Source: an uncultured archaeon (lineage in GTDB: Archaea; Asgardarchaeota; Thorarchaeia; Thorarchaeales; Thorarchaeaceae). Taken from it: DNA of 32,000 nucleotides. The stretch spans positions 1 to 32,000 of the forward strand of contig CAYHAA010000021.1 in NCBI GenBank assembly GCA_964354495.1. Direction: 5' to 3'. A program made the translations under genes and the position numbers. How positions within the stretch are numbered: the stretch's first letter is position 1; every line of letters starts with the position of its first letter. Below, one piece after another: positions 932 through 16,149 of the stretch. The notes beneath the pieces are model-generated. The model saw nothing but the letters and a program-made list of their open reading frames with translations. It had not been told where the DNA came from and did no database searches.

Positions 932-2023
932 TTGACAGCACCGTGCTATCTATGTGGAAAGCCGTCAGTCATTGAGAGTCTCTGTGCTGACTGCTACAAT
1001 GAGGGGCATCCTCTGATTGAGGTCTCCACACCACTCACGTTGCTGGCATGCAAGAAATGTGGGTCCATCAAGTTGGCTGATGGATGGAGGAAGCAACCAC
1101 AGGACTGCGCAGACCAAGATGAGCTGTCCAATTACCAGATCGATGTGCTTCTTCAGAACGAGATCAGGATAATCGGAAAGGATGTGAATCTCTCTCTAGC
1201 AGAGGAGCGGAGACTGGATAGAGTCTCTCACACGACAGTGACTGCATCAGGAAAGTCTCATGGAAGCCTCTCTCCACATGATGAACACTACGATGTTGAG
1301 ATTCGGTTCAGATATGGAACTTGTGACACCTGCGGGATGCTGAGCGGTGGGTACTATGAGGCTATTCTCCAAGTACGTGCTGACGGTCGCGGACTGACTG
1401 ATGACGAAAAGGATGCCATAATGAAGACAGTGACTGATATCACAGTGGCAAAATATAGGTCCGACGACAAGGCCTTCATCACTAGTACGACTGACGACAA
1501 GTTCGGCACTGACTTCTACATTGGGTCAGAGAATCTGTGCAAATATCTTGCCAGTGAACTTGAGATTCAGTATCTGGCTGAACGGAAAGAGAACTACAAA
1601 CTGTACGGCGAAGACAAGACAGGCAGGAGAAAATACCGGATAACCATACTGATCAGGCTTCCACGCTTCACAGTTGGGGATTTCGTTAGGGTTGATAATA
1701 TACCCTGTCAGATAGTTGCACTGGGTCGGAATATGTTGACATGTTATGACCTGAAACGACGAGAACGTTTTTCCATCAATCAAAAGAGTGCCAGGTGGCG
1801 CACGTTAGAGTTCCTTGCTCCTCTGTCAAGTCGCCGTGAGTTCATGGTCACCACAAAGTCCTATGGGCAACCTACCCAGATAATGGACTCTGCCACCTTT
1901 GAGGTTCTTGAAGTGGATGAGGAAGCACTAGAATCCGGGACTGTAGCAGGCGCAAAGATCTATGCCCTAAGTGTGGAAGATGGTTTCTATATACTCCCTG
2001 ACCAGAATCAGCTGACCGAGTAG
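932..2023 (+). CDS. nmd3: NMD3 family ribosome maturation/export protein
   Basis: Zn-binding CxxC pairs (CYLC, CADC, CKKC, CDTC), GGYYEAILQVRA motif and C-terminal SH3/OB-like region; TTG start; first gene of the NMD3-aIF1A-RIO1-KH-Top6 cluster. Confidence 0.92.
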   Translation: MTAPCYLCGKPSVIESLCADCYNEGHPLIEVSTPLTLLACKKCGSIKLADGWRKQPQDCADQDELSNYQIDVLLQNEIRIIGKDVNLSLAEERRLDRVSHTTVTASGKSHGSLSPHDEHYDVEIRFRYGTCDTCGMLSGGYYEAILQVRADGRGLTDDEKDAIMKTVTDITVAKYRSDDKAFITSTTDDKFGTDFYIGSENLCKYLASELEIQYLAERKENYKLYGEDKTGRRKYRITILIRLPRFTVGDFVRVDNIPCQIVALGRNMLTCYDLKRRERFSINQKSARWRTLEFLAPLSSRREFMVTTKSYGQPTQIMDSATFEVLEVDEEALESGTVAGAKIYALSVEDGFYILPDQNQLTE

Positions 2024-2136
2024 CACTTGCTTTACCCCGCTTGTGGCATTCAATTCAATACGCTTAAATGTGGTCCCGCCAGAATGACCAGCCATCGCTT
2101 AGGGACTAACATCCAGCGATAGAACGGAGAATCATT

Positions 2137-2469
2137 TTGTCCTATAAGAAGAAAGGTGGAGGTCCACCTGCAGCAAGTTCATCCGAACCAATGAGAGTCA
2201 GAACTCCGAATAAGAACGAAGGAGAAATGTTCGGAATCATCATCCAGATGCTAGGGTTTGACAGAGTCCGAGTCAGATGTGAGGATGGCAATATTAGAGT
2301 TGGTCGTATCCCTGGCAGACTGAAGAAGAGGGTCTGGATGAGAGTAGGCGATACCGTTCTCCTTACTCCTTGGGATTTCCAGACCGATGAGAAGTGTGAT
2401 GTGGTCTACAGATATAGAGGAAACGAGCTTGAGTGGTTGGAGAAGAGAGGAATCCTCAAGATGTTTTGA
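2137..2469 (+). CDS. eif1a: Translation initiation factor aIF-1A
   Basis: MLGFDRVRVRCEDG..R.GRIPGRLKKRVWMRVGDTVLLTPWDFQ...DVVYRY signature; TTG start. Confidence 0.96.
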   Translation: MSYKKKGGGPPAASSSEPMRVRTPNKNEGEMFGIIIQMLGFDRVRVRCEDGNIRVGRIPGRLKKRVWMRVGDTVLLTPWDFQTDEKCDVVYRYRGNELEWLEKRGILKMF

Positions 2470-2502
2470 AGATGCTAATCCTTTTCTGAATTCTTTTCAA
2501 TA

Positions 2503-3333
2503 ATGCACAAGAAGTATCCGGCATCCCATGGGTGGCATCTACAATTGAAACGGATTGAAAACAAATACAATCAGCTTGAGTCCGAGCTGGATAAGCGCAA
2601 GATGAAGCGTCTGAAGGATGATGACGAGTTCAAAGTAGTAGAGGGTGTCATCGATCCTCCCACGATGAAGGTGCTTCATAGACTTCTGAGTCGCGGTGCT
2701 CTTACAGCACTACATGGTGCAATAAGCACGGGCAAAGAAGCGAATGTCTACAAGGGGTTTGATGCCGATGGACACCCAGTTGCCGTGAAAATATTCAGAG
2801 TCAGCACTGCCGAGACTGATTTCATGTTGGAATACATTGTCGGTGACCCTCGCTTCAAGAATGTCAGACGTCAGAGTCGGGGCCTGATTCCACAATGGGC
2901 GATGAAGGAGTTCAAGAATCTGATGCGATATCACGAAGCAGGGATTCGCGTCCCACGCCCTATTGACATCGAACGTAATGTCCTGATTATGGAATTCATT
3001 GGAGATTCCAAGAAGACGACTGCAGCTCCGCTCTTGAAGGATGTTAGGATTCCATCTCCTGCTGCAACCTTCAACAAGATAATCGGAATGATAGAGAAAG
3101 GGTACACAAAGGCAGGATTGGTGCATGCCGACCTAAGCGAATACAATATTCTCTGGGCCAAAGGGCCTGTCTTCATAGATGTCTCTCAGGCAGTACTCAT
3201 CGCCCATCAGAATGCGAAAAAATACCTATTTCGTGACATTCAAAACATAATCCACTTCTTCAAGAAACTCGGCGTTGAAGCTGAAGAGCCCGATGTCATT
3301 GCTCGATATATCATCTCAGCTGGTGAGAAGTAG
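2503..3333 (+). CDS. rio1: RIO1 family serine/threonine protein kinase
   Basis: ISTGKEANVY, AVKIF, EFKNL, LVHADLSEYNIL and FIDVSQAV motifs; true start may be a few codons downstream. Confidence 0.93.
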   Translation: MHKKYPASHGWHLQLKRIENKYNQLESELDKRKMKRLKDDDEFKVVEGVIDPPTMKVLHRLLSRGALTALHGAISTGKEANVYKGFDADGHPVAVKIFRVSTAETDFMLEYIVGDPRFKNVRRQSRGLIPQWAMKEFKNLMRYHEAGIRVPRPIDIERNVLIMEFIGDSKKTTAAPLLKDVRIPSPAATFNKIIGMIEKGYTKAGLVHADLSEYNILWAKGPVFIDVSQAVLIAHQNAKKYLFRDIQNIIHFFKKLGVEAEEPDVIARYIISAGEK

Positions 3334-3334
3334 A

Positions 3335-3901
3335 ATGTCATTCAAAGAGACAATTCGAGTACCTGTTGAAAGAGTCGGTGTCATAGTTGGACGCAATGGC
3401 AAGGTTCGCAAGCGTATTCAGCAATTAACGAATGTGACTCTTGATATCGACCCTGAAGGCAGTGTGACAATAAGCAGTCTTGGCGGGTCGGAGGATCCTG
3501 TTCTAGCATGGAAAGCTCGGGATATTGTTCACGCGATAGCAAGGGGATTCAGTCCGAAGAACGCATTGACACTGATCGACGAGGACACGATGCTTCTTGT
3601 AATCTCTCTTCGCGAAGCAGTAGGTACGTCGCCTGATCAGGTGAAACGGGTGGCTGGTCGAATCATCGGTGAGAATGGTCGCACACGAAGGGCTATTGAG
3701 CAGATTACCGAAACCAAGGTCACAATCTATGGCAGAACTGTGTCCATTATTGGCATGGAGCCTGGCCTAGATCATGCCAGAAGAGCAATTGAGATGCTCA
3801 TATCGGGAGCGCCCCATAGTGCGGTCTATGCAAGACTTGAGCGGTCGCGTCGAGAGATGAACCGACAAGAGGCAGAACTGTGGGAGAACACAGACCTCTA
3901 G
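3335..3901 (+). CDS. dim2: KH-domain pre-rRNA processing protein (Dim2/Pno1 family)
   Basis: Two KH GxxG loops (VIVGRNGK, RIIGENGRTR) and ARDIVHAIARGF; start moved from the ORF-track 3275 to ATG 3335, 1 nt after the rio1 stop. Confidence 0.9.
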   Translation: MSFKETIRVPVERVGVIVGRNGKVRKRIQQLTNVTLDIDPEGSVTISSLGGSEDPVLAWKARDIVHAIARGFSPKNALTLIDEDTMLLVISLREAVGTSPDQVKRVAGRIIGENGRTRRAIEQITETKVTIYGRTVSIIGMEPGLDHARRAIEMLISGAPHSAVYARLERSRREMNRQEAELWENTDL

Positions 3902-3954
3902 TTGTGTAATACCCCGTCTAATATCACAAGATTTCCAACAGACATCTGAGTACC

Positions 3955-5472
3955 ATGAATCAGAGAGCACCTGTTGAAACAACATTCGAAAGCATTTCTC
4001 CAGCAGAGTTCTTCTATCGAAATCGGCAGTTGGCTGGTTTTGGCAATACAAGCCAGGCAATCTATAGTGCAGTCCGAGAACTGGTTGAGAACAGTCTGGA
4101 CTCCTGCGACGACGCTCAGAGACTACCCCTCATTGAAGTGCAAGTCATGTCTGAGGGTTCCGATATAATTCGTGTCTGTGTTTCTGATAATGGTACTGGT
4201 GTTCCTGACGCTCATGTTCCTCAGGCCTTTGCCAAGATACTATATGGCAGCAAGTTTCACAATAGACAACGACGTGGAACCTTTGGTTTGGGGGTCACTA
4301 TGGCAGTCCTGTATGGTCAGATAACGACAGATTCCCCTGTTCTTGTTCATACGAAATGCCCTGACTCACAAGGTATGGAGTATGCGCTCTTTATCGATGT
4401 GGAAACCAATCAACCAATCATTGAGTCGAGTTGCTCCCGTGACCGCGACTCTGATGGGACCTCGGTCACTCTCCGACTTCGAGGAGACCTAAAGAGAGCA
4501 CAGGAACGAATCCTGGAGTACCTTAGACTGACTACTATCTCCACTCCCCAAGCTCAGGTCTTACTGAAGATGGATAACGCTGAATCTATCACATTCGGGC
4601 GATGGTCAAACACTGTACCTTCTCCCGTTCTCAGTTCGAATCCACATCCTCGAGCTGCTGACCTGGAACTCCTGCGACGGCTGGCCCAGCACAATGGTGA
4701 CAAGCGACTACAAGACTTTCTTGTTGACTCCTTCCAGAAGGTTGGCATCAAGACATCAGGCCGCTTTCTGAAGTTTGGGGGATTTGATCCGACCCGAACG
4801 GTGAACACCTTGACGCGCGATGACCTTGGCCGGATAAGCTCAGCTCTGCGCAAATTCGACGGCTTTGAGAGTCCTGACAACAAGAGCCTCAGCCCGATCG
4901 GAGAAGAAGACTTTCTCGTTGGGATCCGGTCTGTCTTTAACATCTCATCACACTACTACTCTGTTAGGGGACCATCAGAGTGGCAGGGGAATCCCTTCAT
5001 CATAGAAGGCGTCTTGGCGACTGGAGACGACTTTCCGAGCTCCGATATTCCCACACTCTACCGATTTGCCAATCGAGTGCCTCTTCTCTATGATTCTGGT
5101 GAGGATGTCTTGACCAAGACTCTGAAGCGTGTCAACTGGGAGCGTTACAGTGTTGATTCCTCCGTTCCGGCTGCACTCTTCCTCCATCTCTGTTCAACTC
5201 GAGTCCCTTACAAGGCAGCAGGAAAGCAATCAATAGATGCTATTTCTGAGATTGAGGTCGAAGTTGTGTCTCTACTCAGAGAGCTAGGGCGACGATTTGG
5301 CAGAACAATGCGGAAGAGCGAGAAGACCCTACGAGAAGGAAAGAAGATGCACGAGTATGCAAAGTCGTTCAGGCATCTGGCAAAATTCGGGGCTGAGCTG
5401 GCGGGGGTAGATGAGGTCCCTGACACAAATTGTCTGGTGAAGCAACTGTTTGAGGTGAGTCTCGATGAATGA
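3955..5472 (+). CDS. top6B: DNA topoisomerase VI subunit B
   Basis: SISPAEFFYRNRQLAGF, GHKL motifs (RELVENSLD, DNGTG, GTFGLG), RFANRVPLLYD, RVPYKAAGKQSI. Confidence 0.96.
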   Translation: MNQRAPVETTFESISPAEFFYRNRQLAGFGNTSQAIYSAVRELVENSLDSCDDAQRLPLIEVQVMSEGSDIIRVCVSDNGTGVPDAHVPQAFAKILYGSKFHNRQRRGTFGLGVTMAVLYGQITTDSPVLVHTKCPDSQGMEYALFIDVETNQPIIESSCSRDRDSDGTSVTLRLRGDLKRAQERILEYLRLTTISTPQAQVLLKMDNAESITFGRWSNTVPSPVLSSNPHPRAADLELLRRLAQHNGDKRLQDFLVDSFQKVGIKTSGRFLKFGGFDPTRTVNTLTRDDLGRISSALRKFDGFESPDNKSLSPIGEEDFLVGIRSVFNISSHYYSVRGPSEWQGNPFIIEGVLATGDDFPSSDIPTLYRFANRVPLLYDSGEDVLTKTLKRVNWERYSVDSSVPAALFLHLCSTRVPYKAAGKQSIDAISEIEVEVVSLLRELGRRFGRTMRKSEKTLREGKKMHEYAKSFRHLAKFGAELAGVDEVPDTNCLVKQLFEVSLDE

Positions 5473-6517
5473 GGGGGAGCAAGCACAGCTCAAGCTCATA
5501 GAACTAGGCAGGCATATACTCGACCCAATTCTTGAGAGTCGGTTTCCTGTGATTGACGTTCCTGACAGAAACACTAACAATATTGTGTATGAGGCTCAGC
5601 GGAACAGGTTCGTCTTGGGAGCCTCCAAGAATGTCAGAGACTCAAGCAACATCAATCATATACGCAGCTTCGCTCAACTTGCTTGGGTCGCAAGTTACTC
5701 AAAACAACTTCTGAAAGCATCTAGAACCAGTTCTCTGCGTGACCTCTATTACTCAAGTGAGGCCTTTGGTGTGTCTTTCAAGGACCAAGCCGAATCAGAT
5801 CGTATCGTCACCGATTTGGAGAGCGTCACTGGGTTGCCACGCGAATCCTTTGGCATTTTTCCGGATGAACACTCTTCCATCTATGGCGAGCTGATAATGA
5901 GGTACACTGTTCCGGACTATAATGGTCGTGAGATCGACTTGACCATTAGTCCAGACGGATTGCCGATTGGTCCCGCTATAATGACTGCTGAACCCGTCCG
6001 AACTAATGCCGAGATTGTGTTGGCTGTCGAGTCTGGGGGTATGTTCTCTCGTCTGATCGAAACAAAGGCGTGGCAGAGATTCAAGGCTGTGTTGATTCAA
6101 CTCGGTGGCCAGCCCCCACGGGCTACAAGAAGTCTGATACGGACTCTTCACAAAGAGCTTGATCTGCCTGTGTATCTCTTTACTGATGGTGACCCATGGG
6201 GAATGCATATTGCTCAAGTCATCATGTCGGGCAGCGCTAACTCAGCGCATATAGAGGGTCTGACCACTCCTGAGGCCAAATGGATTGGTGTCACGCCTCA
6301 AGATATCGAGCAGTATTCTCTACCGACTGACAAACTGAACAATGCTGACCTGAAGCGACTCGATGAACTCTCCCGAGACGTACGCTACTCTGACAGTGAG
6401 TGGCAGCATCATATTGAGGGCTTCAGAAGACTGAGAACTAAGGCGGAACAGCAGGCCTTCAGCAGGTATGGTATGGACTTTGTTGTTGATACCTACCTCT
6501 CAGACAAAATCGCCTAG
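5465..6517 (+). CDS. top6A: DNA topoisomerase VI subunit A
   Basis: Catalytic Tyr motif SLRDLYY, TOPRIM motifs AVESGGMF and TDGDPWG, KAEQQAF; overlaps the top6B stop. Confidence 0.96.
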   Translation: MNEGEQAQLKLIELGRHILDPILESRFPVIDVPDRNTNNIVYEAQRNRFVLGASKNVRDSSNINHIRSFAQLAWVASYSKQLLKASRTSSLRDLYYSSEAFGVSFKDQAESDRIVTDLESVTGLPRESFGIFPDEHSSIYGELIMRYTVPDYNGREIDLTISPDGLPIGPAIMTAEPVRTNAEIVLAVESGGMFSRLIETKAWQRFKAVLIQLGGQPPRATRSLIRTLHKELDLPVYLFTDGDPWGMHIAQVIMSGSANSAHIEGLTTPEAKWIGVTPQDIEQYSLPTDKLNNADLKRLDELSRDVRYSDSEWQHHIEGFRRLRTKAEQQAFSRYGMDFVVDTYLSDKIA

Positions 6518-7560
6518 ATCCATCCAATCCCGAGTGGATTGCCTATGATGAGTATCAGAACAGTACCATAGACGAATAGTGCTTGGATGAGGAGTAAGAT
6601 AGCCACATTCTTCTTCTCTGTGATGTTCCTGAAGAAGTGCGGCAGGATCCAGTAGATGGTAAATGGCCCCACGACTTCCAAGGTTCCATCCTCTCTTGGT
6701 GTGGCGAACTTCACCCACTTCATCCCTTTCCGTCTAGCATAGAGTCTGTAGATAAGATAGAGCAGAAAATTGGTTCCAAATGGGATGTACATCACGAATG
6801 CAAATCTGTCCATATTGCCTATGATCAATGCTGCAGCCATGGCCGCTCCCATGGGTAGGTTACCAACATCGCCAGAGAGAATCTTTGCAGGATACCTGTT
6901 GAAGATCAAGAACGCCAATGATGCACCGAGCAGTGCTGCTGCAACAACTCCTGCCTCTATCTGCGTGGGAGCAACTGCATGACCATCAAGGTATGGCATG
7001 AGAAATATGTATAGAACAAGGCCTGAAGCGTTGATTGCACTCAGCCCTGCCTCGAGTCCATTCATGCCCGCATACATGTTCGTTGCATCAATAATGAATG
7101 TCATCATGAGTGGAACTATGACAAGAGCGTATGCTATCCCAAAGTTCACTGTTCCTATGAACGGTATCGTGATTGTGGGCGTACCAATACTCAGCGCCAT
7201 CATTGGAATAGACGCCACCAGAGGAAGTGCAATCTTCGTCTTGGTACTGAAGTCCAGATTGTCATCTAGGAGACCAATCATCCCCGCCATAAGGATGGAG
7301 ACCAACGCTCCGAACAGTCCTACCATGCCGACTTCAAGGCTCTGGAAGGTCGTAAGTCCAACGATAGCAAGTATGGCGAAGACAATCGCAAAGAGGATGA
7401 CATACCCTCCGCCCTTTGGTATCTCAGGTCTTTCAGGCTTGTGAACGTCTGTACCTGTGAACCCCTTCTCTTTGAGCATGCGAATTGCGCTGGGTGTAAA
7501 CAGTACTACCACAACAAAGGATACCAGAACGGCGATTAGAATCTCTATCAAATGTACCAC
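6514..7560 (-). CDS. aglH: UDP-GlcNAc:dolichyl-phosphate GlcNAc-1-phosphotransferase (AglH/ALG7/DPAGT1-like, glycosyltransferase family 4)
   Basis: Polytopic membrane protein with GTDVHKP, GLLDD, ATNMYAGMNGLE and FNRYPAKILSGDVG motifs. Confidence 0.88.
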   Translation of the reverse strand: MVHLIEILIAVLVSFVVVVLFTPSAIRMLKEKGFTGTDVHKPERPEIPKGGGYVILFAIVFAILAIVGLTTFQSLEVGMVGLFGALVSILMAGMIGLLDDNLDFSTKTKIALPLVASIPMMALSIGTPTITIPFIGTVNFGIAYALVIVPLMMTFIIDATNMYAGMNGLEAGLSAINASGLVLYIFLMPYLDGHAVAPTQIEAGVVAAALLGASLAFLIFNRYPAKILSGDVGNLPMGAAMAAALIIGNMDRFAFVMYIPFGTNFLLYLIYRLYARRKGMKWVKFATPREDGTLEVVGPFTIYWILPHFFRNITEKKNVAILLLIQALFVYGTVLILIIGNPLGIGWI

Positions 7561-7735
7561 CCTTTTCGGACGAAGACACTACGAGTTGGTTTTGACCTTT
7601 TCGGAGTAGGGCAAAGTCGTGCATGCTTTCAACATCCGAAATCTATTTTAACGAACCAGAAGCTCGGGCGCACCATCCATGGTCCAGTGGACACCACAGA
7701 CATGGAATTCTCCCAATTGAGCACGGTGATCCGTA

Positions 7736-10726
7736 TTGAGACTGCTGAATAGTAAGATAGGGGTTCTTGTACTGCTTGGTCTTCTCATTTCAAGCAGCAT
7801 GTTGGCAATGAGCCCGATCTCAAGTACAATGGAAAGCGAAGAATTGGCTCAGAGGATGGCAGATGGTTCTACTCTGGCAACGTCTTCAATGAACGTCTCG
7901 ATACCATATGTTGACAACCATTATGGTTCAGCAGATGGAATAATAGACCCAACTGAATACGCCTCTATCTTTACGGACCCTGCCTCGGGAGTCACAGCCT
8001 ATTTCGAGCACAATGGCACCTTGCTCTATGTTGGTCTAGAGGCATCTACGAAGGGGTGGATTGGCTTTGCCTGGCAGAACTACACCTCAGGTTTCACAGA
8101 GGCTGGTCTGAACAACAGTGATGTGATTGTCGGCTATGTTCCTGGCACAACTCTCACAAGTATGTGGCGCGTGAAAGGAACAGATGGGGTGACAGTTCAC
8201 TACTCTCTGAGTCTTCGAAATGGGTCACTGGTCCAAGAGGGGTCTGCCCCTTCAGAGAGCTCGACTGAACCTATTTCGGGCGCATCTCTACTTCAGGCAT
8301 ACAAAGATGCGATTATTGGGATGAGGATTGGTGAAATCCGCCACTTTATCATTCCTCCTGAAAAGGGATACACCACATCCACTGACAATCTCTATGGTCA
8401 GGACCTCATCTATACAATCACGCTGACTCGCATCTATAGGTCTGGCGTGTCAAGAACAATCAACCCCGCTGACACGAGTCAAATCGTCTATAGTGATGAA
8501 TACGGAACAAGCACCTTCCAGCATCTCCCCGACACTGACCAGACTCGGATTCTATCTGCTGATGGGTCCGATAATGGTACAATGACTCAGTTGGAGTACG
8601 TCCTCAATCTGAACAGCACAGATCTCAATGATGTTCCTCTGTTCAATGGGACCGACATTGTCTTTCCATTTGTCTTCATGTTCGGGTCCGGTGAAGAACT
8701 GAATGGGCTCCCTGTACAGCATACATACTGGACAGAGCCAGCCATGATTGAAGTCTTACCGAATCTGCCTCCCACAATGACCATTATCAGTCCTGAGGAT
8801 GGCGCAACTATTGAATGGATTGCATCACTGAAGCTGAATGCCACGAACGACTTTGTTGTGCAGGCATCCTACAAAATGGATAATGAATCTTGGGCTGATC
8901 TTCAGTACAACTTCAAATCGAAGATATGGGAAGCAGTTGTTGACTTGTCTATCTATGGGGAAGGTCCGCATATCTTCTCGTTCAATGCCACTGATCTCTC
9001 AAATGCAACAGGTATTGCGTATCTCAATTTTGAGATAGATAGACCATTCTTCCCCCTCTTGGGAATGCGCATGGATGTATCACGTTCATTCATTGTCACT
9101 CCCAACTTTGGTTCACGAGTGGTTGATACCTATACAATCAAGAATAACGGGTCGGTACCTATCAGCTCAATAGACATGTATCTCCCTGAGCAGTACGAAT
9201 CGAATGTTATCGAATTTGTGGCTGCAGATAATTCGGGTCATGACATCAGGGTTGTTCGATTGGAGAATGCTGATGGAATGATTCACTGGAGATTGCACTT
9301 CCCAGATGCAGTCAAGTTCCAGGAGTCGTTCATCTTCAAGACGACAACATATATGCACAGTCTCTTCTATTTGATAGTTTCAAAAGACTATGAGTATAGA
9401 CTTGAGTTCCTAAGATACCCAACAGTTCCCTACGTACTGAACAAGGCGAATTTTGAACTCAACTTCGAGGGTGGTGGTTCACTAGTTCCGAATGAGGTAG
9501 TGCCCAATCTTCGGTTGACCAATCTCGAACCTTTCACGGAAAACCTATTCGGCGTTAGTCTACGACTCTTCACCGAGAACATAATATCACGTCGGGCGAC
9601 CAGAATCATTGTGGATGCATGGGGCTGGTTGACATACGAGGAAACCATCTCGCTGGAAAACACTGGTGGACAGGCCATTGCCACAATCCCATTGACCTTA
9701 CCTGCATATTCAGCCAATATCAAGATATTCGACCAGGTTGGCGCCCTAGCAACTTCGCAGACTCAGGCGGCTATTACAACGGGCGATTTCAATGAAACAC
9801 GAGCGCTCACAATCAAGCTGGGAACAGATAGATTTGGTGCTGATGGTTTCAAACCAACATACAAATACACGTTCAAGGTAACGTATGTTGTCCAGGCAAG
9901 TGCCTATCAGAGTGCAGCCTCAGGGGGAATTCTGCTAGAACCTCCAATGGCGCTGCTTGGAGACATTCTGGTTCTCACCCATAGTTTGGATATTGTCTTC
10001 ACAGCATCAGTAGTAGCCAATGATGCGACGGAGGGTTACAGGCGACTCTATGGTATCTTTGATACATCGTATAGTTACACTTTCGATAATAGAACCCAGC
10101 GGAACCCCGCAGAGATATCTGTTGTCTATCAGAACACACTTGGCGCTGCAGCTAGGCCTGTTCTCTTCTCTCTAATAGTTGGCATCATAGCGGCACTCTA
10201 TGTCTCATACAGAAAGGTCAAATTGCCTGAAGATGCTCTGGGAGCGAGCGCTCAATCAGATGAGCATGGTGAATCTGATAAAGTGAAGCAGGTGGGCGCA
10301 CCTCCAGAACTTCTCTCCGACTTTGCCCAACTCTACTCAAGCAAGACAACTCTCAGTATTGATCTTGAGAAGCTCGATGCCGATAGAAGGAGAGGGAAGG
10401 TCAAGAAGCGAGAGTACATGATGCGCGACAGTGACCTGAAGAAGCAGATTGAGGTACTTGACCGTAGACTGCCCAGCGTGAAGGAGGAGCTCTCCCAACA
10501 TGGCACACGGTACAGAGATATGATTGCCCAGCTGGAACTTCAAGATGAACGAATCGAGGGCGCCAAGGCTGGTCTGCGTCAGCTCCTCATCAGGAAGAAG
10601 AAACAGAGAATTAGCCGCGCAGCCTTTGAGAAGTCCCGTCAGGACTACTTGAAGACGATTCAGAAGGCGCAGAGCGCTACTGATAGGATTCTCCTAACAA
10701 TCCAGGAGGAAGCTGGAGAGGTCTAG
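7736..10726 (+). CDS. Type I membrane protein: signal peptide, DOMON domain with inserted FKBP-type domain, Ig-like domain, ribophorin I (OST1/RPN1)-like luminal region, TM helix and cytoplasmic helical tail
   Basis: DOMON motifs (LLYVGLEASTKGWIGFAW, SDVIVGYV, GTMTQLEYVLNLNSTDLND); FKBP motifs (VTVHY, IIGMRIGEIRHFIIPPEKGY); RPN1-like motifs (RIIVDAWGWLTYEETISLENTG, LPAYSANIKIFDQVGALATS); one TM helix at about aa 809-825; many N-x-S/T sequons; TTG start with a GGTGA RBS. Confidence 0.78.
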   Translation: MRLLNSKIGVLVLLGLLISSSMLAMSPISSTMESEELAQRMADGSTLATSSMNVSIPYVDNHYGSADGIIDPTEYASIFTDPASGVTAYFEHNGTLLYVGLEASTKGWIGFAWQNYTSGFTEAGLNNSDVIVGYVPGTTLTSMWRVKGTDGVTVHYSLSLRNGSLVQEGSAPSESSTEPISGASLLQAYKDAIIGMRIGEIRHFIIPPEKGYTTSTDNLYGQDLIYTITLTRIYRSGVSRTINPADTSQIVYSDEYGTSTFQHLPDTDQTRILSADGSDNGTMTQLEYVLNLNSTDLNDVPLFNGTDIVFPFVFMFGSGEELNGLPVQHTYWTEPAMIEVLPNLPPTMTIISPEDGATIEWIASLKLNATNDFVVQASYKMDNESWADLQYNFKSKIWEAVVDLSIYGEGPHIFSFNATDLSNATGIAYLNFEIDRPFFPLLGMRMDVSRSFIVTPNFGSRVVDTYTIKNNGSVPISSIDMYLPEQYESNVIEFVAADNSGHDIRVVRLENADGMIHWRLHFPDAVKFQESFIFKTTTYMHSLFYLIVSKDYEYRLEFLRYPTVPYVLNKANFELNFEGGGSLVPNEVVPNLRLTNLEPFTENLFGVSLRLFTENIISRRATRIIVDAWGWLTYEETISLENTGGQAIATIPLTLPAYSANIKIFDQVGALATSQTQAAITTGDFNETRALTIKLGTDRFGADGFKPTYKYTFKVTYVVQASAYQSAASGGILLEPPMALLGDILVLTHSLDIVFTASVVANDATEGYRRLYGIFDTSYSYTFDNRTQRNPAEISVVYQNTLGAAARPVLFSLIVGIIAALYVSYRKVKLPEDALGASAQSDEHGESDKVKQVGAPPELLSDFAQLYSSKTTLSIDLEKLDADRRRGKVKKREYMMRDSDLKKQIEVLDRRLPSVKEELSQHGTRYRDMIAQLELQDERIEGAKAGLRQLLIRKKKQRISRAAFEKSRQDYLKTIQKAQSATDRILLTIQEEAGEV

Positions 10727-10840: not shown

Positions 10841-11698
10841 ATGAAGAAGAGTAAACCTATCGATCGTCAGACAATTAGAGCTAGGGAGCTTTTGGATGAC
10901 GAGTCTCTTGCTCTCGAGATGTATCAATATTTGACTGGCTCGCCAAGCGTGCAGTCATATCTCCGCAGTGCAAACCGTATGGCAGTGTCCAGATTGGGCT
11001 ACACGGACCATGGCCCTGTTCATGCAGAAGTGGCAACTTGGTATGCACTAAAGACGTTTGACATCCTTGAGAGCACATTCAAGCCCAATGTAGTTGCTGA
11101 GGGCATTGGCGATCTTGACGACGCGCGTCTTGTCGTACTCGCCTCGACCTATCTCCATGACATAGGTATGGTTGTCCATAGAAACGAGCACCAACAAGCC
11201 TCGGTTCAGCTTGCAAGTCCGATTCTCGAGTCCAAGTTGAATGACATATATGGCGATCCTGGGAAGGCAACTGATATTCTCTCTTTCATCTTTCACGGCA
11301 TCTATGCCCATGATGACGACACTCAGTGCCTCACCTTTGAGGCCGGAATCACCAAGATCGGTGACGGGTGCGATATGACGAAGGGTCGAACAGTAGTTCC
11401 CTTCCAGCAGGGGAAGGTCGATATCCATTCAGTCAGTGCAATGGCAATCAATGATGTCGTACTCTCGGCCGGTGATACTAAGCCTCTGCAAATCACTGTG
11501 GCTATGGATAATCCTGCAGGAGTCTTTCAGGTGCAGGCAGTCCTTGAGAAGAAGCTATCCACATCCGGCCTGAACGATTACGTCGATATTGATATCGAGG
11601 TCAACGGAGACCGTCTTGTGCTCTCTCACGTGAAGCGTCTCTTCAGGGTTGAGATGGCACAGCAAGAAGAGCCACTGAGCGTCAGAGAAAAAGAGTAA
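10841..11698 (+). CDS. HD-superfamily metal-dependent phosphohydrolase (COG3294-like)
   Basis: RLGYTDHGPVHA, YLHDIGM, IYAHD and IGDGCDMTKGR motifs. Confidence 0.88.
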   Translation: MKKSKPIDRQTIRARELLDDESLALEMYQYLTGSPSVQSYLRSANRMAVSRLGYTDHGPVHAEVATWYALKTFDILESTFKPNVVAEGIGDLDDARLVVLASTYLHDIGMVVHRNEHQQASVQLASPILESKLNDIYGDPGKATDILSFIFHGIYAHDDDTQCLTFEAGITKIGDGCDMTKGRTVVPFQQGKVDIHSVSAMAINDVVLSAGDTKPLQITVAMDNPAGVFQVQAVLEKKLSTSGLNDYVDIDIEVNGDRLVLSHVKRLFRVEMAQQEEPLSVREKE

Positions 11699-14391: not shown

Positions 14392-16149
14392 TTGAGGAGT
14401 ATGGGACCATTGAGGAAGTATCCAATCATCATTTGCCTCTTGGTCGTACTGTTTCTGAATGCAGGTATTCAAAGTGGTAATGCTGATGTGACTTCACTTA
14501 GTTCAAATCACATGATAAAAAGCGATAGCCGCCTCTTTGACTGGGTACAGGAATTGCAGGAACACGCTCCTATCGTAGTTGCTGCCGACGATGACTTCGT
14601 TGTTCAAGGATGGGAAGGAAACGGGTCAGAGAGTAATCCCTTCATTATTGAGGAGATTGTGATTAGAGCACCATATTCCGCCATAATGATATCGAACACT
14701 ACCAAACACTTCGAGATTCGCAGATGTCTTTTCACCACAGAAAATCCTCCTGTTAGCGGAGGCCCAGCATTGAACTTCAGGAATGTGACAAATGGTCGTG
14801 TGGCCAGTTGCTTCATTAATGGAACATCGTATGGGGTAGTAGTCAGAAATTCCACAGATTGCCAATTCACTGATAATATCGTGTCTGATAATATGTTCGA
14901 TGCATTTGTCTTTGAATACGGACAAGACATCCTTGTTGAGAATAACACAATCCATCACTCGAGTTCTGGAATTTCGTTGGAGGAGTCAACTAACTTTGCA
15001 ATATGTGACAATCGTATCTATGAGTGCTACAAAGGTATGTACCTGATCGATGTTCAGTCTTGCGATGTTCGAGAAAATATGGTCTGGAGAAGCAATATTG
15101 GAATAGATATGACGCGCGCACAGAGCGTCATCACGAACAATACTATCTACGGGAACACTAACATTGGTGTTCGAGCCAGCACAGGCATAGCATCAACTAT
15201 GGTCTATGGAAATTGTATTGGCTGGAATGGAGCAACAAATGCTCAGGATGATAGTAATTCTACCGAATGGGATGATGGTATTGACACTGGAAATTGCTGG
15301 AGTGACTGGCTTGGAACAGGCAACTATTCGATTCCCGGAACTGCGGCAGGTCAGGATCGATGGCCGTTGCTTCTAGTCGATGATGTGACTCCAGTTGTTG
15401 ACTCTCCGGATGATGTCGATTTTGAGTTTGGAATCAGAGGCAAGTCAGTGACATGGAATACGAGTGATGAATTTCCCTTGACCTACCAGATTTTGAGAAA
15501 TGGTGAGGTGATAGAAGCGCAAACTTGGACCGGACAAACGCTGACTGTTCAATTGGAAGGCCTAGTTCCTAGAACTCATTTCTATATGGTTCGACTCTGG
15601 GATGCTCAAGGGAATTATGTAACTGATCAGGTGTCTGTCATTATTGCAGAGGCAGAACCTCCGATGATTAACCACCCCCCTGATATACAGCATATTGTTG
15701 GTGATGTGGGGTACAATATTACTTGGATCCCAACGGATGCATACCCTGACCACTATGAAGTCTTTATCAACGGGACAGCACACGAATCAGGTGACTGGAA
15801 CGGTTCTGAGATTGTAATTCTTGTTGATGGCCTTGATGTCGGTGTGCATGATTATACTCTAGTAGTATATGATGTAATAGGACAGGAAACAATGGATACA
15901 GTATTAGTGGTAGTTTTCGCTTATTCCAATCCTCCTCCACCCAATTATCTTCTACAGGTGCTGTTTTACCTTGGTATCGGTGCGGTTGGTTTCATAGTTG
16001 CCTTTTCAATTCTCTACATAAGGAAACCATTCTTGAAACATATCAGAGATGAAGATGATTCTGTGGACAACGATGAGATCCAGGAAGCGATAAAGGAACT
16101 AGTTGCTGACAGAGATATGAGCGCAGACTTCAGTGATAGTCACAAATGA
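14392..16149 (+). CDS. Cell-surface protein with parallel beta-helix (NosD/CASH-like) repeats, two Ig-like repeats and a C-terminal TM anchor
   Basis: Signal peptide; HAPIVV..DDDF...WEGNGSESNPFIIE cap; repeated xxNNxIxxN units; GNCWSDW; two repeats of type (S/I)TWxxxDxxPxxY.(I/V)..NG; hydrophobic helix near the C-terminus. Start TTG 14392 or ATG 14401. Confidence 0.85.
   Translation: MRSMGPLRKYPIIICLLVVLFLNAGIQSGNADVTSLSSNHMIKSDSRLFDWVQELQEHAPIVVAADDDFVVQGWEGNGSESNPFIIEEIVIRAPYSAIMISNTTKHFEIRRCLFTTENPPVSGGPALNFRNVTNGRVASCFINGTSYGVVVRNSTDCQFTDNIVSDNMFDAFVFEYGQDILVENNTIHHSSSGISLEESTNFAICDNRIYECYKGMYLIDVQSCDVRENMVWRSNIGIDMTRAQSVITNNTIYGNTNIGVRASTGIASTMVYGNCIGWNGATNAQDDSNSTEWDDGIDTGNCWSDWLGTGNYSIPGTAAGQDRWPLLLVDDVTPVVDSPDDVDFEFGIRGKSVTWNTSDEFPLTYQILRNGEVIEAQTWTGQTLTVQLEGLVPRTHFYMVRLWDAQGNYVTDQVSVIIAEAEPPMINHPPDIQHIVGDVGYNITWIPTDAYPDHYEVFINGTAHESGDWNGSEIVILVDGLDVGVHDYTLVVYDVIGQETMDTVLVVVFAYSNPPPPNYLLQVLFYLGIGAVGFIVAFSILYIRKPFLKHIRDEDDSVDNDEIQEAIKELVADRDMSADFSDSHK

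Follow-up and report, generated by a model that had tools for sequence, protein, structure and literature searches.

This study concerns a single gene in a window of 32,000 nucleotides, the whole stretch of DNA that was analysed, from an uncultured archaeon of the Thorarchaeaceae (assembly GCA_964354495.1, contig CAYHAA010000021.1, positions 1 to 32,000 of the forward strand). At positions 7736-10726 of the plus strand, the list of open reading frames (ORFs) and their translations give one uninterrupted ORF of 996 amino acids (aa) with TTG as start codon; a Shine-Dalgarno-like GGTGA lies 6-10 nt 5' of this codon. With a probability that we put at roughly 0.78, the gene is the single-copy OST1/ribophorin I orthologue of its order, it carries an extracellular extension of about 410 aa that is specific to this lineage, and its product would be an accessory subunit of the oligosaccharyltransferase (OST). 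We write the extension as DOMON[FKBP]-Ig, for a DOMON-type beta-sandwich with a nested FKBP domain, followed by an immunoglobulin (Ig)-like domain. The features along the gene are given below, where VIA denotes the second structure aligner, used beside Foldseek.

7736..10726, plus strand: whole gene, OST1/ribophorin I orthologue with N-terminal DOMON[FKBP]-Ig, predicted type I membrane protein (ORF, homologues, one copy per genome)
7736..7816, plus strand: predicted signal peptide or N-terminal h-region, aa 1-27 (hydropathy above 1.6 at aa 1-10; present in homologues of 985-996 aa)
7889..8155, plus strand: DOMON-superfamily sandwich, N-terminal half, aa 52-140 (sub-threshold Pfam DOMON match; VIA)
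8156..8449, plus strand: FKBP-type domain inserted in the DOMON sandwich, aa 141-238 (Pfam FKBP_C; VIA)
8450..8761, plus strand: DOMON-superfamily sandwich, C-terminal half, aa 239-342 (VIA alignments that span both halves)
8762..9043, plus strand: Ig-like domain of Big_7 type, aa 343-436 (Pfam in homologues; VIA)
9044..10138, plus strand: ribophorin I/OST1 extracellular body, beta-sandwiches aa 437-645 and 646-801, which hold both motifs quoted below (Foldseek, VIA, profiles)
10139..10213, plus strand: single transmembrane helix, aa 802-826, followed by RKVK (positive inside) (hydropathy; helix 371-394 of the model)
10301..10723, plus strand: cytoplasmic four-helix domain, aa 856-996, homologous to the ribosome-binding OST1 tail (phmmer and VIA matches to 8WHN)

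The long form of the gene that starts at TTG is the sensible gene model, because homologues of 985-996 aa retain the hydrophobic N-terminus. The database copy of the protein begins at M22 (975 aa) and would be without the signal-peptide segment. A 19-residue hydropathy scan finds two hydrophobic segments only, one at the extreme N-terminus and one at about aa 802-826, and the 170 C-terminal residues after the transmembrane helix contain 35 K/R and 30 D/E. A first-pass annotation of this DNA, made from the letters alone, had described one transmembrane helix and a charged helical tail of about 170 aa, and both are borne out by the hydropathy scan and by four long helices in the AlphaFold2 model. 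The protein has 15 N-x-S/T sequons, every one of them in the part predicted to be extracellular and 6 of them invariant in the family, and is likely a glycoprotein itself; it has no cysteine. In a related metagenome contig (about 94% identical), two paired +1/-1 indels, 3 nt apart, occur at 8374-8377 and 8856-8859. Each pair restores the frame within one to two codons, which is consistent with selection for an open long ORF.

The C-terminal part of the protein had been called RPN1-like from its layout, and this call is upheld by the predicted structure and by profile searches. The AlphaFold2 model of aa 432-996, built from an alignment of 36 sequences (mean pLDDT 83), has two beta-sandwich domains, one transmembrane helix and four long cytoplasmic helices. 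In a Foldseek search of the PDB, each of its eight best matches is human RPN1 or yeast Ost1 (E 6.6e-28 to 2.3e-18), and the next fold is integrin alpha with E 3e-8. With VIA, RPN1/Ost1 reach Z 27-31 over 369-515 residues. The cytoplasmic part is also recognized by sequence, as phmmer matches aa 842-986 to PDB entry 8WHN (E 9.5e-8), and VIA superimposes the tail on this entry with Z 17.1 and an rmsd of 2.0 Å (141 of 142 residues aligned). 8WHN comes from the Lokiarchaeon MK-D1 and represents the cytoplasmic domain of its OST1 (ribophorin I); this domain pulls down ribosomes, as does the human one (PMC11417166).

The connection to other Asgard proteins comes from a profile of aa 432-996, which matched 346 proteins among 1.8 billion representatives. 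The non-Thorarchaeal full-length matches listed from this search are 550-670 aa long and are mostly matched end to end (E 1e-58 to 1e-17). Six of the nine short proteins that were scanned pass Pfam Ribophorin_I, and four of the ten that were looked up carry a name, namely Odinarchaeia, Helarchaeota, Asgardarchaeia and Promethearchaeota. A mixed profile of the Thorarchaeal halves and the short Asgard proteins finds human RPN1 along its full length (E 1.8e-48) and also yeast Ost1 (E 6.6e-26). Both motifs quoted in the first-pass annotation, RIIVDAWGWLTYEETISLENTG and LPAYSANIKIFDQVGALATS, are present in the translated ORF, and the human RPN1 segments named there, RVIEVSHWGNIAVEE and a second one of 20 residues (protein letters not shown), do exist and share profile columns with these motifs. 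By predicted fold and profile links, aa 437-996 are a ribophorin I/OST1 homologue, connected to eukaryotic RPN1/Ost1 through the OST1 proteins of Asgard archaea. An M1 aminopeptidase or generic beta-sandwich fold, named beforehand as an identity that would speak against RPN1, is rejected: the N-domains of M1 aminopeptidases reach E 3e-6 and Z values of at most 13.0 for one domain only, against Z 27-31 for RPN1. The body had further been described as two similar beta-rich units; the model does contain two beta-sandwich domains (aa 437-645 and 646-801), whereas significant sequence similarity between them is absent. An internal duplication of the two domains was rejected at a mutual BLASTP E of 0.2.

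Several results weigh against this assignment. The protein itself scores 13.4 bits (E 0.041) with Pfam Ribophorin_I (PF04597) against a cut-off of 25, and a search of the whole genome with this family returned nothing, the present sub-threshold gene included. Among PDB entries, profiles made from Thorarchaeal sequences only reached 8WHN and FKBPs, but no eukaryotic RPN1. Because the gene is sub-threshold and the Thorarchaeal profiles miss eukaryotic RPN1, its membership in OST1 rests on the fold and on transitive profile links. Among the orthologues, 9 of 36 do match PF04597 at E<=0.01, the best with 9.6e-10.

For the N-terminal head (aa 52-436), the first-pass annotation had named DOMON, FKBP and Ig domains, all three of which are recovered with Pfam and VIA, and had placed them in series, which does not hold, since the FKBP domain is nested in the DOMON sandwich. 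The FKBP domain is the clearest of the three by sequence: Pfam FKBP_C (PF00254) matches aa 146-230 with E 9e-8 and 32.7 bits against a cut-off of 21.1, and it does so in 36 of 36 family members. Big_7 is found in 13 and DOMON in 7 of these 36. The Big_7 match (PF17957, aa 346-385) is weak in the protein at hand (E 0.33) and goes down to E 6e-11 in homologues. DOMON (PF03351) at aa 94-146 stays below threshold with 17.4 bits against a cut-off of 32.7, and its best E in the 36 members is 6e-5. When the two halves are scanned separately, the N-terminal half weakly matches DOMON profile positions 13-57 or 15-63, and the C-terminal half of one homologue matches positions 54-111 (E 0.07), collinear with the match of the N-terminal half.

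The structural evidence for the head comes from an AlphaFold2 model of aa 28-436 (pLDDT 76, with two low-confidence loops) that was compared by VIA with 48,161 PDB representatives. The sandwich, model residues 25-315, is most similar to the gamma subunit of ethylbenzene dehydrogenase, EbdC (2ivf_C; Z 14.2 over 161 residues, rmsd 2.7), followed by NxrC (Z 13.2), the carbohydrate-binding module CBM9 (1i82, Z 12.1), the DOMON domain of dopamine beta-hydroxylase (4zel, Z 11.0) and the CDH/PDH cytochrome domains (Z 9.3-9.4). These alignments cover both flanks of the FKBP insert. The insert, model residues 114-211, matches SlyD (Z 9.5), FKBP13 (Z 9.2) and FKBP11 (Z 8.8), and the Ig-like domain, model residues 316-409, matches the Ig-like domain of mannanase 6tn6 (Z 13.5, rmsd 1.7, 89 aa). 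The exhaustive VIA comparison was needed for the sandwich, as a Foldseek search of the PDB with the whole N-terminal module gave mostly Ig-like matches, with FKBP13 only at rank 48. In the predicted structure, aa 52-436 are a DOMON-superfamily sandwich with a nested FKBP domain, followed by an Ig-like domain. Members of the DOMON superfamily (2IVF_C, 7B04_C, 1I82, 4ZEL, 1D7C) share the beta-sandwich with Z 9-14 over 136-181 residues; unlike in these, the sandwich is here interrupted by a 98-aa FKBP domain. Among AFDB fold clusters, the whole nested module found no match (TM-score 0.36 or less).

The fusion is widespread. Homologues that cover the full length (970-996 aa, 50-90% identical) number more than 200 and come from many metagenomes, and the named ones are Thorarchaeota; their usual annotation is 'FKBP-type peptidyl-prolyl cis-trans isomerase' or 'hypothetical protein'. 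Across 201 sampled genomes of the phylum, the N-terminal module is present in full in 43 of 43 genomes of the family and in the one genome of the sister family (1/1), and there are single-domain matches only elsewhere. Each of the 45 genomes of the order, the source genome among them, has a single copy of the RPN1-like half. Complete fused copies lie in frames of 985-1034 aa (one has 1233 aa), a few copies end at contig ends, and in other Asgard families the RPN1-like half lies in frames of 560-640 aa. The fused form has therefore taken the place of plain OST1 throughout the order. The junction between module and OST1 at nt 9043 is crossed without joints by Logan contigs of public runs, which come from three independent studies, and one of them, of 6.1 kb, covers 7500-10346. 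Among the public runs listed, none with this sequence is an RNA run. A fusion unique to this assembly had been named beforehand as a result that would speak against it; the fusion extends beyond one assembly, being order-wide and bridged in the contigs of three studies.

Conservation is unevenly distributed along the protein. The share of columns that are invariant within the family is highest in the cytoplasmic bundle (43%), followed by the N-terminal half of the DOMON sandwich (27%) and the FKBP domain (26%). It is 12% in the Ig-like domain, 11% in the C-terminal DOMON half and 9-11% in the two RPN1 body domains. From these shares, the N-terminal extension is at least as constrained as the ancestral RPN1 body.

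The genomic neighbourhood has a link to N-glycosylation, through the gene that diverges from OST1:

6514..7560, minus strand: Glycos_transf_4 polyprenyl-phosphate sugar-1-phosphate transferase, divergent neighbour (Pfam PF00953, E 1e-28)

Judging from its family, this neighbour is probably an AglH/ALG7-type enzyme that would carry out the first step of N-glycan assembly. The head-to-head pair is present in five of the five other genera checked, the sister family included, and in each of them the paired gene is the only Glycos_transf_4 match of the genome. It is also found, within the same wider synteny, in a relative that is 68% identical (L011). In three of five other Asgard genomes, from four families, Glycos_transf_4 and plain OST1 lie <=6 kb apart.

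Other candidate OST components are encoded elsewhere in the source genome, which is 97.7% complete. Its single STT3/AglB (908 aa) is on another contig (L010, C3:130000-143000, at 3265-5991, minus strand), 3.5 kb from the gene for a 140-aa OST3/6-like protein (L010 9464-9886, minus strand), whose similarity to OST3/OST6 is confined to their C-terminal membrane part. Between these two lie genes for glycine-cleavage H and T proteins and for the folate pathway. A candidate for Ost5/TMEM258 is an 81-aa frame (L012, C5:166658-166831, minus strand) with a sub-threshold Pfam Ost5 match (E 0.011), a noise level that 9 of 14 control genomes also reach. A complex prediction of STT3 aa 1-595 with OST1 aa 440-835, folded without alignments, gave a score of 0.00, and we use it for neither side of the argument.

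How does the protein compare with known ribophorins? It shares with the OST1 of other Asgard archaea, for instance that of Ca. Prometheoarchaeum syntrophicum MK-D1, two extracellular beta-sandwiches, one transmembrane helix and a cytoplasmic four-helix domain. In the non-Thorarchaeal Asgard OST1 proteins seen (550-670 aa), however, the body directly follows the signal peptide, whereas about 410 N-terminal residues are added here. With eukaryotic RPN1/Ost1 (6S7O, 8B6L; 6EZN) it has in common the fold over 369-515 residues, the cytosolic helical bundle and the conserved W-G ... N-x-G and D-x-x-G motifs, which align. It differs from them in an identity of only 12-16%, in its site, predicted to be the cell membrane instead of the endoplasmic reticulum (ER), and in its N-terminal DOMON, FKBP and Ig domains, which eukaryotic RPN1 is without.

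Two eukaryotic proteins offer partial parallels for the head. Human FKBP11 is found at the OST-A secretory translocon (9YGY, 9N9J), bound to translocons with an associated ribosome, where it acts as an adaptor with a buried pocket and not as an isomerase (PMC12804085). In both cases an FKBP fold adjoins an RPN1-containing OST on the lumenal or extracellular side, as seen in structures for FKBP11 and as we infer for the present protein. Unlike FKBP11, which is a separate single-pass protein with a ribosome-binding tail of its own and is recruited dynamically, the FKBP domain is here covalently joined to OST1 and lies inside a DOMON sandwich. There is no evidence for a common descent of the FKBP11 arrangement and the Thorarchaeal fusion. 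Malectin binds ribophorin I in ER glycoprotein quality control of animals and plants (PMC9144812). It resembles the head in being a beta-sandwich of carbohydrate-binding type on the non-cytoplasmic side of ribophorin I, and the parallel would be a functional one if the DOMON domain binds glycan; it is, however, a separate protein and belongs to a different sandwich family.

Together, these comparisons suggest a model for the action of the protein. It would sit next to AglB/STT3 at the Sec translocon of the cell membrane, as an accessory subunit without catalytic function. Its conserved cytoplasmic bundle would dock the translating ribosome, by analogy with the MK-D1 and human domains (PMC11417166), and its RPN1 body would lie alongside the catalytic subunit in the manner of 6S7O and 6EZN. 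As a spacer, the Ig domain may keep the DOMON[FKBP] head raised over the exit site, in the path of emerging chains. The head could then bind emerging polypeptide through the FKBP pocket and a second ligand, glycan or haem, through the DOMON sandwich, with the FKBP domain acting as a holdase or adaptor. Association with STT3/AglB and with ribosomes in this organism is presumed here. The idea, already voiced in the first-pass annotation, that a prolyl isomerase or chaperone and a ligand-binding domain on the OST couple folding to N-glycosylation is likewise hypothetical. In its full form, the proposal is that the OST-translocon of Thorarchaeota has a built-in station for co-translocational folding and quality control, in which the FKBP domain holds chains and the DOMON domain reads glycan or another ligand, beside AglB and over the Sec exit. 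We offer it as a tentative proposal, at well below even odds.

Some features of the head argue against the model of action set out above. The FKBP pocket was mapped from HMMER alignments to BpML1 and wheat FKBP73, with a canonical pocket that we take to be, in FKBP12 numbering, Y26, F36, D37, F46, W59, Y82 and F99. Two of these residues are retained (Y26 as Y156, Y82 as Y212). Three are replaced outright (D37 by Q167, F46 by S176, W59 by Y189), F36 by V/L (V, L or I across the family), and F99 by Y226. Prolyl isomerase activity of the FKBP-fold domain is therefore doubtful as far as the sequence goes, and the altered pocket makes a holdase or adaptor role likelier than that of a fast prolyl isomerase. 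Since Q167, S176 and Y189, which take the place of canonical residues, do not vary within the family, the pocket is remodelled and under selection, not decaying. Moreover, the best fold matches of the DOMON-type sandwich, EbdC and NxrC, are haem-b proteins with no obvious link to glycosylation. Finally, transmembrane-anchored stand-alone proteins of 572-595 aa exist in some relatives, so that the N-terminal module can apparently work without OST1, as an autonomous unit.

These stand-alone proteins speak for an alternative in which DOMON[FKBP]-Ig works at the cell surface as a module of its own, for instance in ligand or envelope binding or in sensing, with the OST1 body as a mere anchor and no role in glycosylation or folding. 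One family genome has, in addition to the fusion, a second gene (L009:2034-3821; G179:C23:20533-22320) for a 595-aa protein that is 39% identical to aa 53-426 and consists of a signal peptide, the module, an extra PKD-like domain, a C-terminal transmembrane helix of its own and a short basic tail. A search of a protein collection gave four more of the same layout (P0296, P0297, P0299, P0304; 572-586 aa, 43-50% identical). The paralogues (P0288, P0296, P0297, P0299, P0304; 39-50% identical, with their own membrane anchor), the non-canonical FKBP pocket and the frequent occurrence of DOMON and Ig domains in surface proteins all fit with this alternative. However, the fusion is fixed as a single copy in every searched genome of the order, with no plain OST1 left, so that the head is always delivered wherever OST1 sits, and the head is at least as conserved as the OST1 body. 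The stand-alone form, in turn, was found in just 1 of 45 sampled genomes of the order, a rarity which suggests that it is a secondary duplicate derived from the fusion. We consider a head with no part in glycosylation or folding unlikely.

A role in protein translocation alone is a further alternative. The RPN1-like body would then act without AglB/STT3, as a ribosome receptor or translocon accessory on the Sec/TRAP side, and its link to N-glycosylation would be only historical. The concentration of invariant positions in the tail of ribosome-binding type would agree with this, as would the location of STT3 and OST3/6 on another contig. The conserved Glycos_transf_4 neighbour (head-to-head in 5/5 genera, <=6 kb away in 3/5 other Asgard genomes) speaks against it, and so does the fact that eukaryotic RPN1/Ost1 is an integral OST subunit (6S7O, 6EZN). 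We regard this explanation as improbable.

The nature of the best fold matches raises the question of haem b binding by the DOMON-type domain, in which case the head would take part in extracellular redox reactions or electron transfer, like EbdC, NxrC and CDH, with the FKBP domain as a structural insert. In the family alignment, the sandwich contains two invariant residues, H263 and M315, and two near-invariant ones, H92 and H329, which together with the Z values for EbdC (14.2), NxrC (13.2) and the CDH/PDH cytochromes (9.3-9.4) would be compatible with such a function. Yet the Z values are nearly as high for CBM9 (12.1) and for dopamine beta-hydroxylase (11.0), whose DOMON domain is non-haem, the neighbourhood has no redox partner, and N-glycosylation is the pathway of both the fusion partner and the conserved neighbour. 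A redox function is in our view highly improbable. An assembly or gene-calling artefact that fuses two genes, which the unusual architecture and the database copy called from M22 (975 aa) might have suggested, is refuted by the more than 200 full-length homologues from many sources, by 44 genomes with an uninterrupted frame of 985-1034 aa and by the Logan contigs of three studies that span nt 9043.

Ribophorin I is a eukaryotic signature protein that is present in Asgard archaea, and its role is poorly understood even in eukaryotes, where it is thought to be a substrate-specific facilitator and a docking site for malectin and the ribosome. Homologues of OST1 are known in Asgard archaea, Thorarchaeota included (PMC10307638; PMC11417166). 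An account of DOMON[FKBP]-Ig on OST1 was absent from the literature searched, which covered few subscription journals, in agreement with the first-pass annotation, where no description of the fusion was known. As the Thorarchaeal proteins are mostly annotated as FKBP isomerases or hypothetical proteins, surveys by names or Pfam thresholds can miss this OST1. The swap of plain OST1 for a conserved FKBP-in-DOMON version throughout an order is a natural experiment, which points to an action on emerging chains as the task for which OST1 is placed, and the soluble head domains can be produced and tested with no need for a culture of the organism. The functional reading is plausible and bears on how chaperoning and N-glycosylation became coupled at ribophorin I. 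If the proposal of a folding and quality-control station is true, this coupling would have arisen, or have arisen convergently, in Asgard archaea, and eukaryotes get an equivalent arrangement via separate proteins (FKBP11, malectin) that are recruited to ribophorin I.

The remaining genes around the pair are of other kinds. Downstream of OST1, 10841-11698 (plus strand) encodes a soluble protein of 285 aa without a Pfam match, which has an HD-like motif, YLHDIG, and a weak match to phosphohydrolases (E 0.06). It may be co-transcribed with OST1, and the 68%-identical relative has a gene for 287 aa at the same place 3' of OST1 (L011:9069-9932). Upstream of the glycosylation pair, 932-6517 (plus strand) contains genes for NMD3, (eIF-1A), RIO1 kinase, a PNO1/KRR1-like KH protein and topoisomerase VI B and A, and the gene order from NMD3 to topoisomerase VI is the same in L011. 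Further downstream, a stretch of lower GC content (~42%) at 12-18 kb includes 14392-16149 (plus strand), which encodes a 585-aa protein of the right-handed beta-helix/NosD type.

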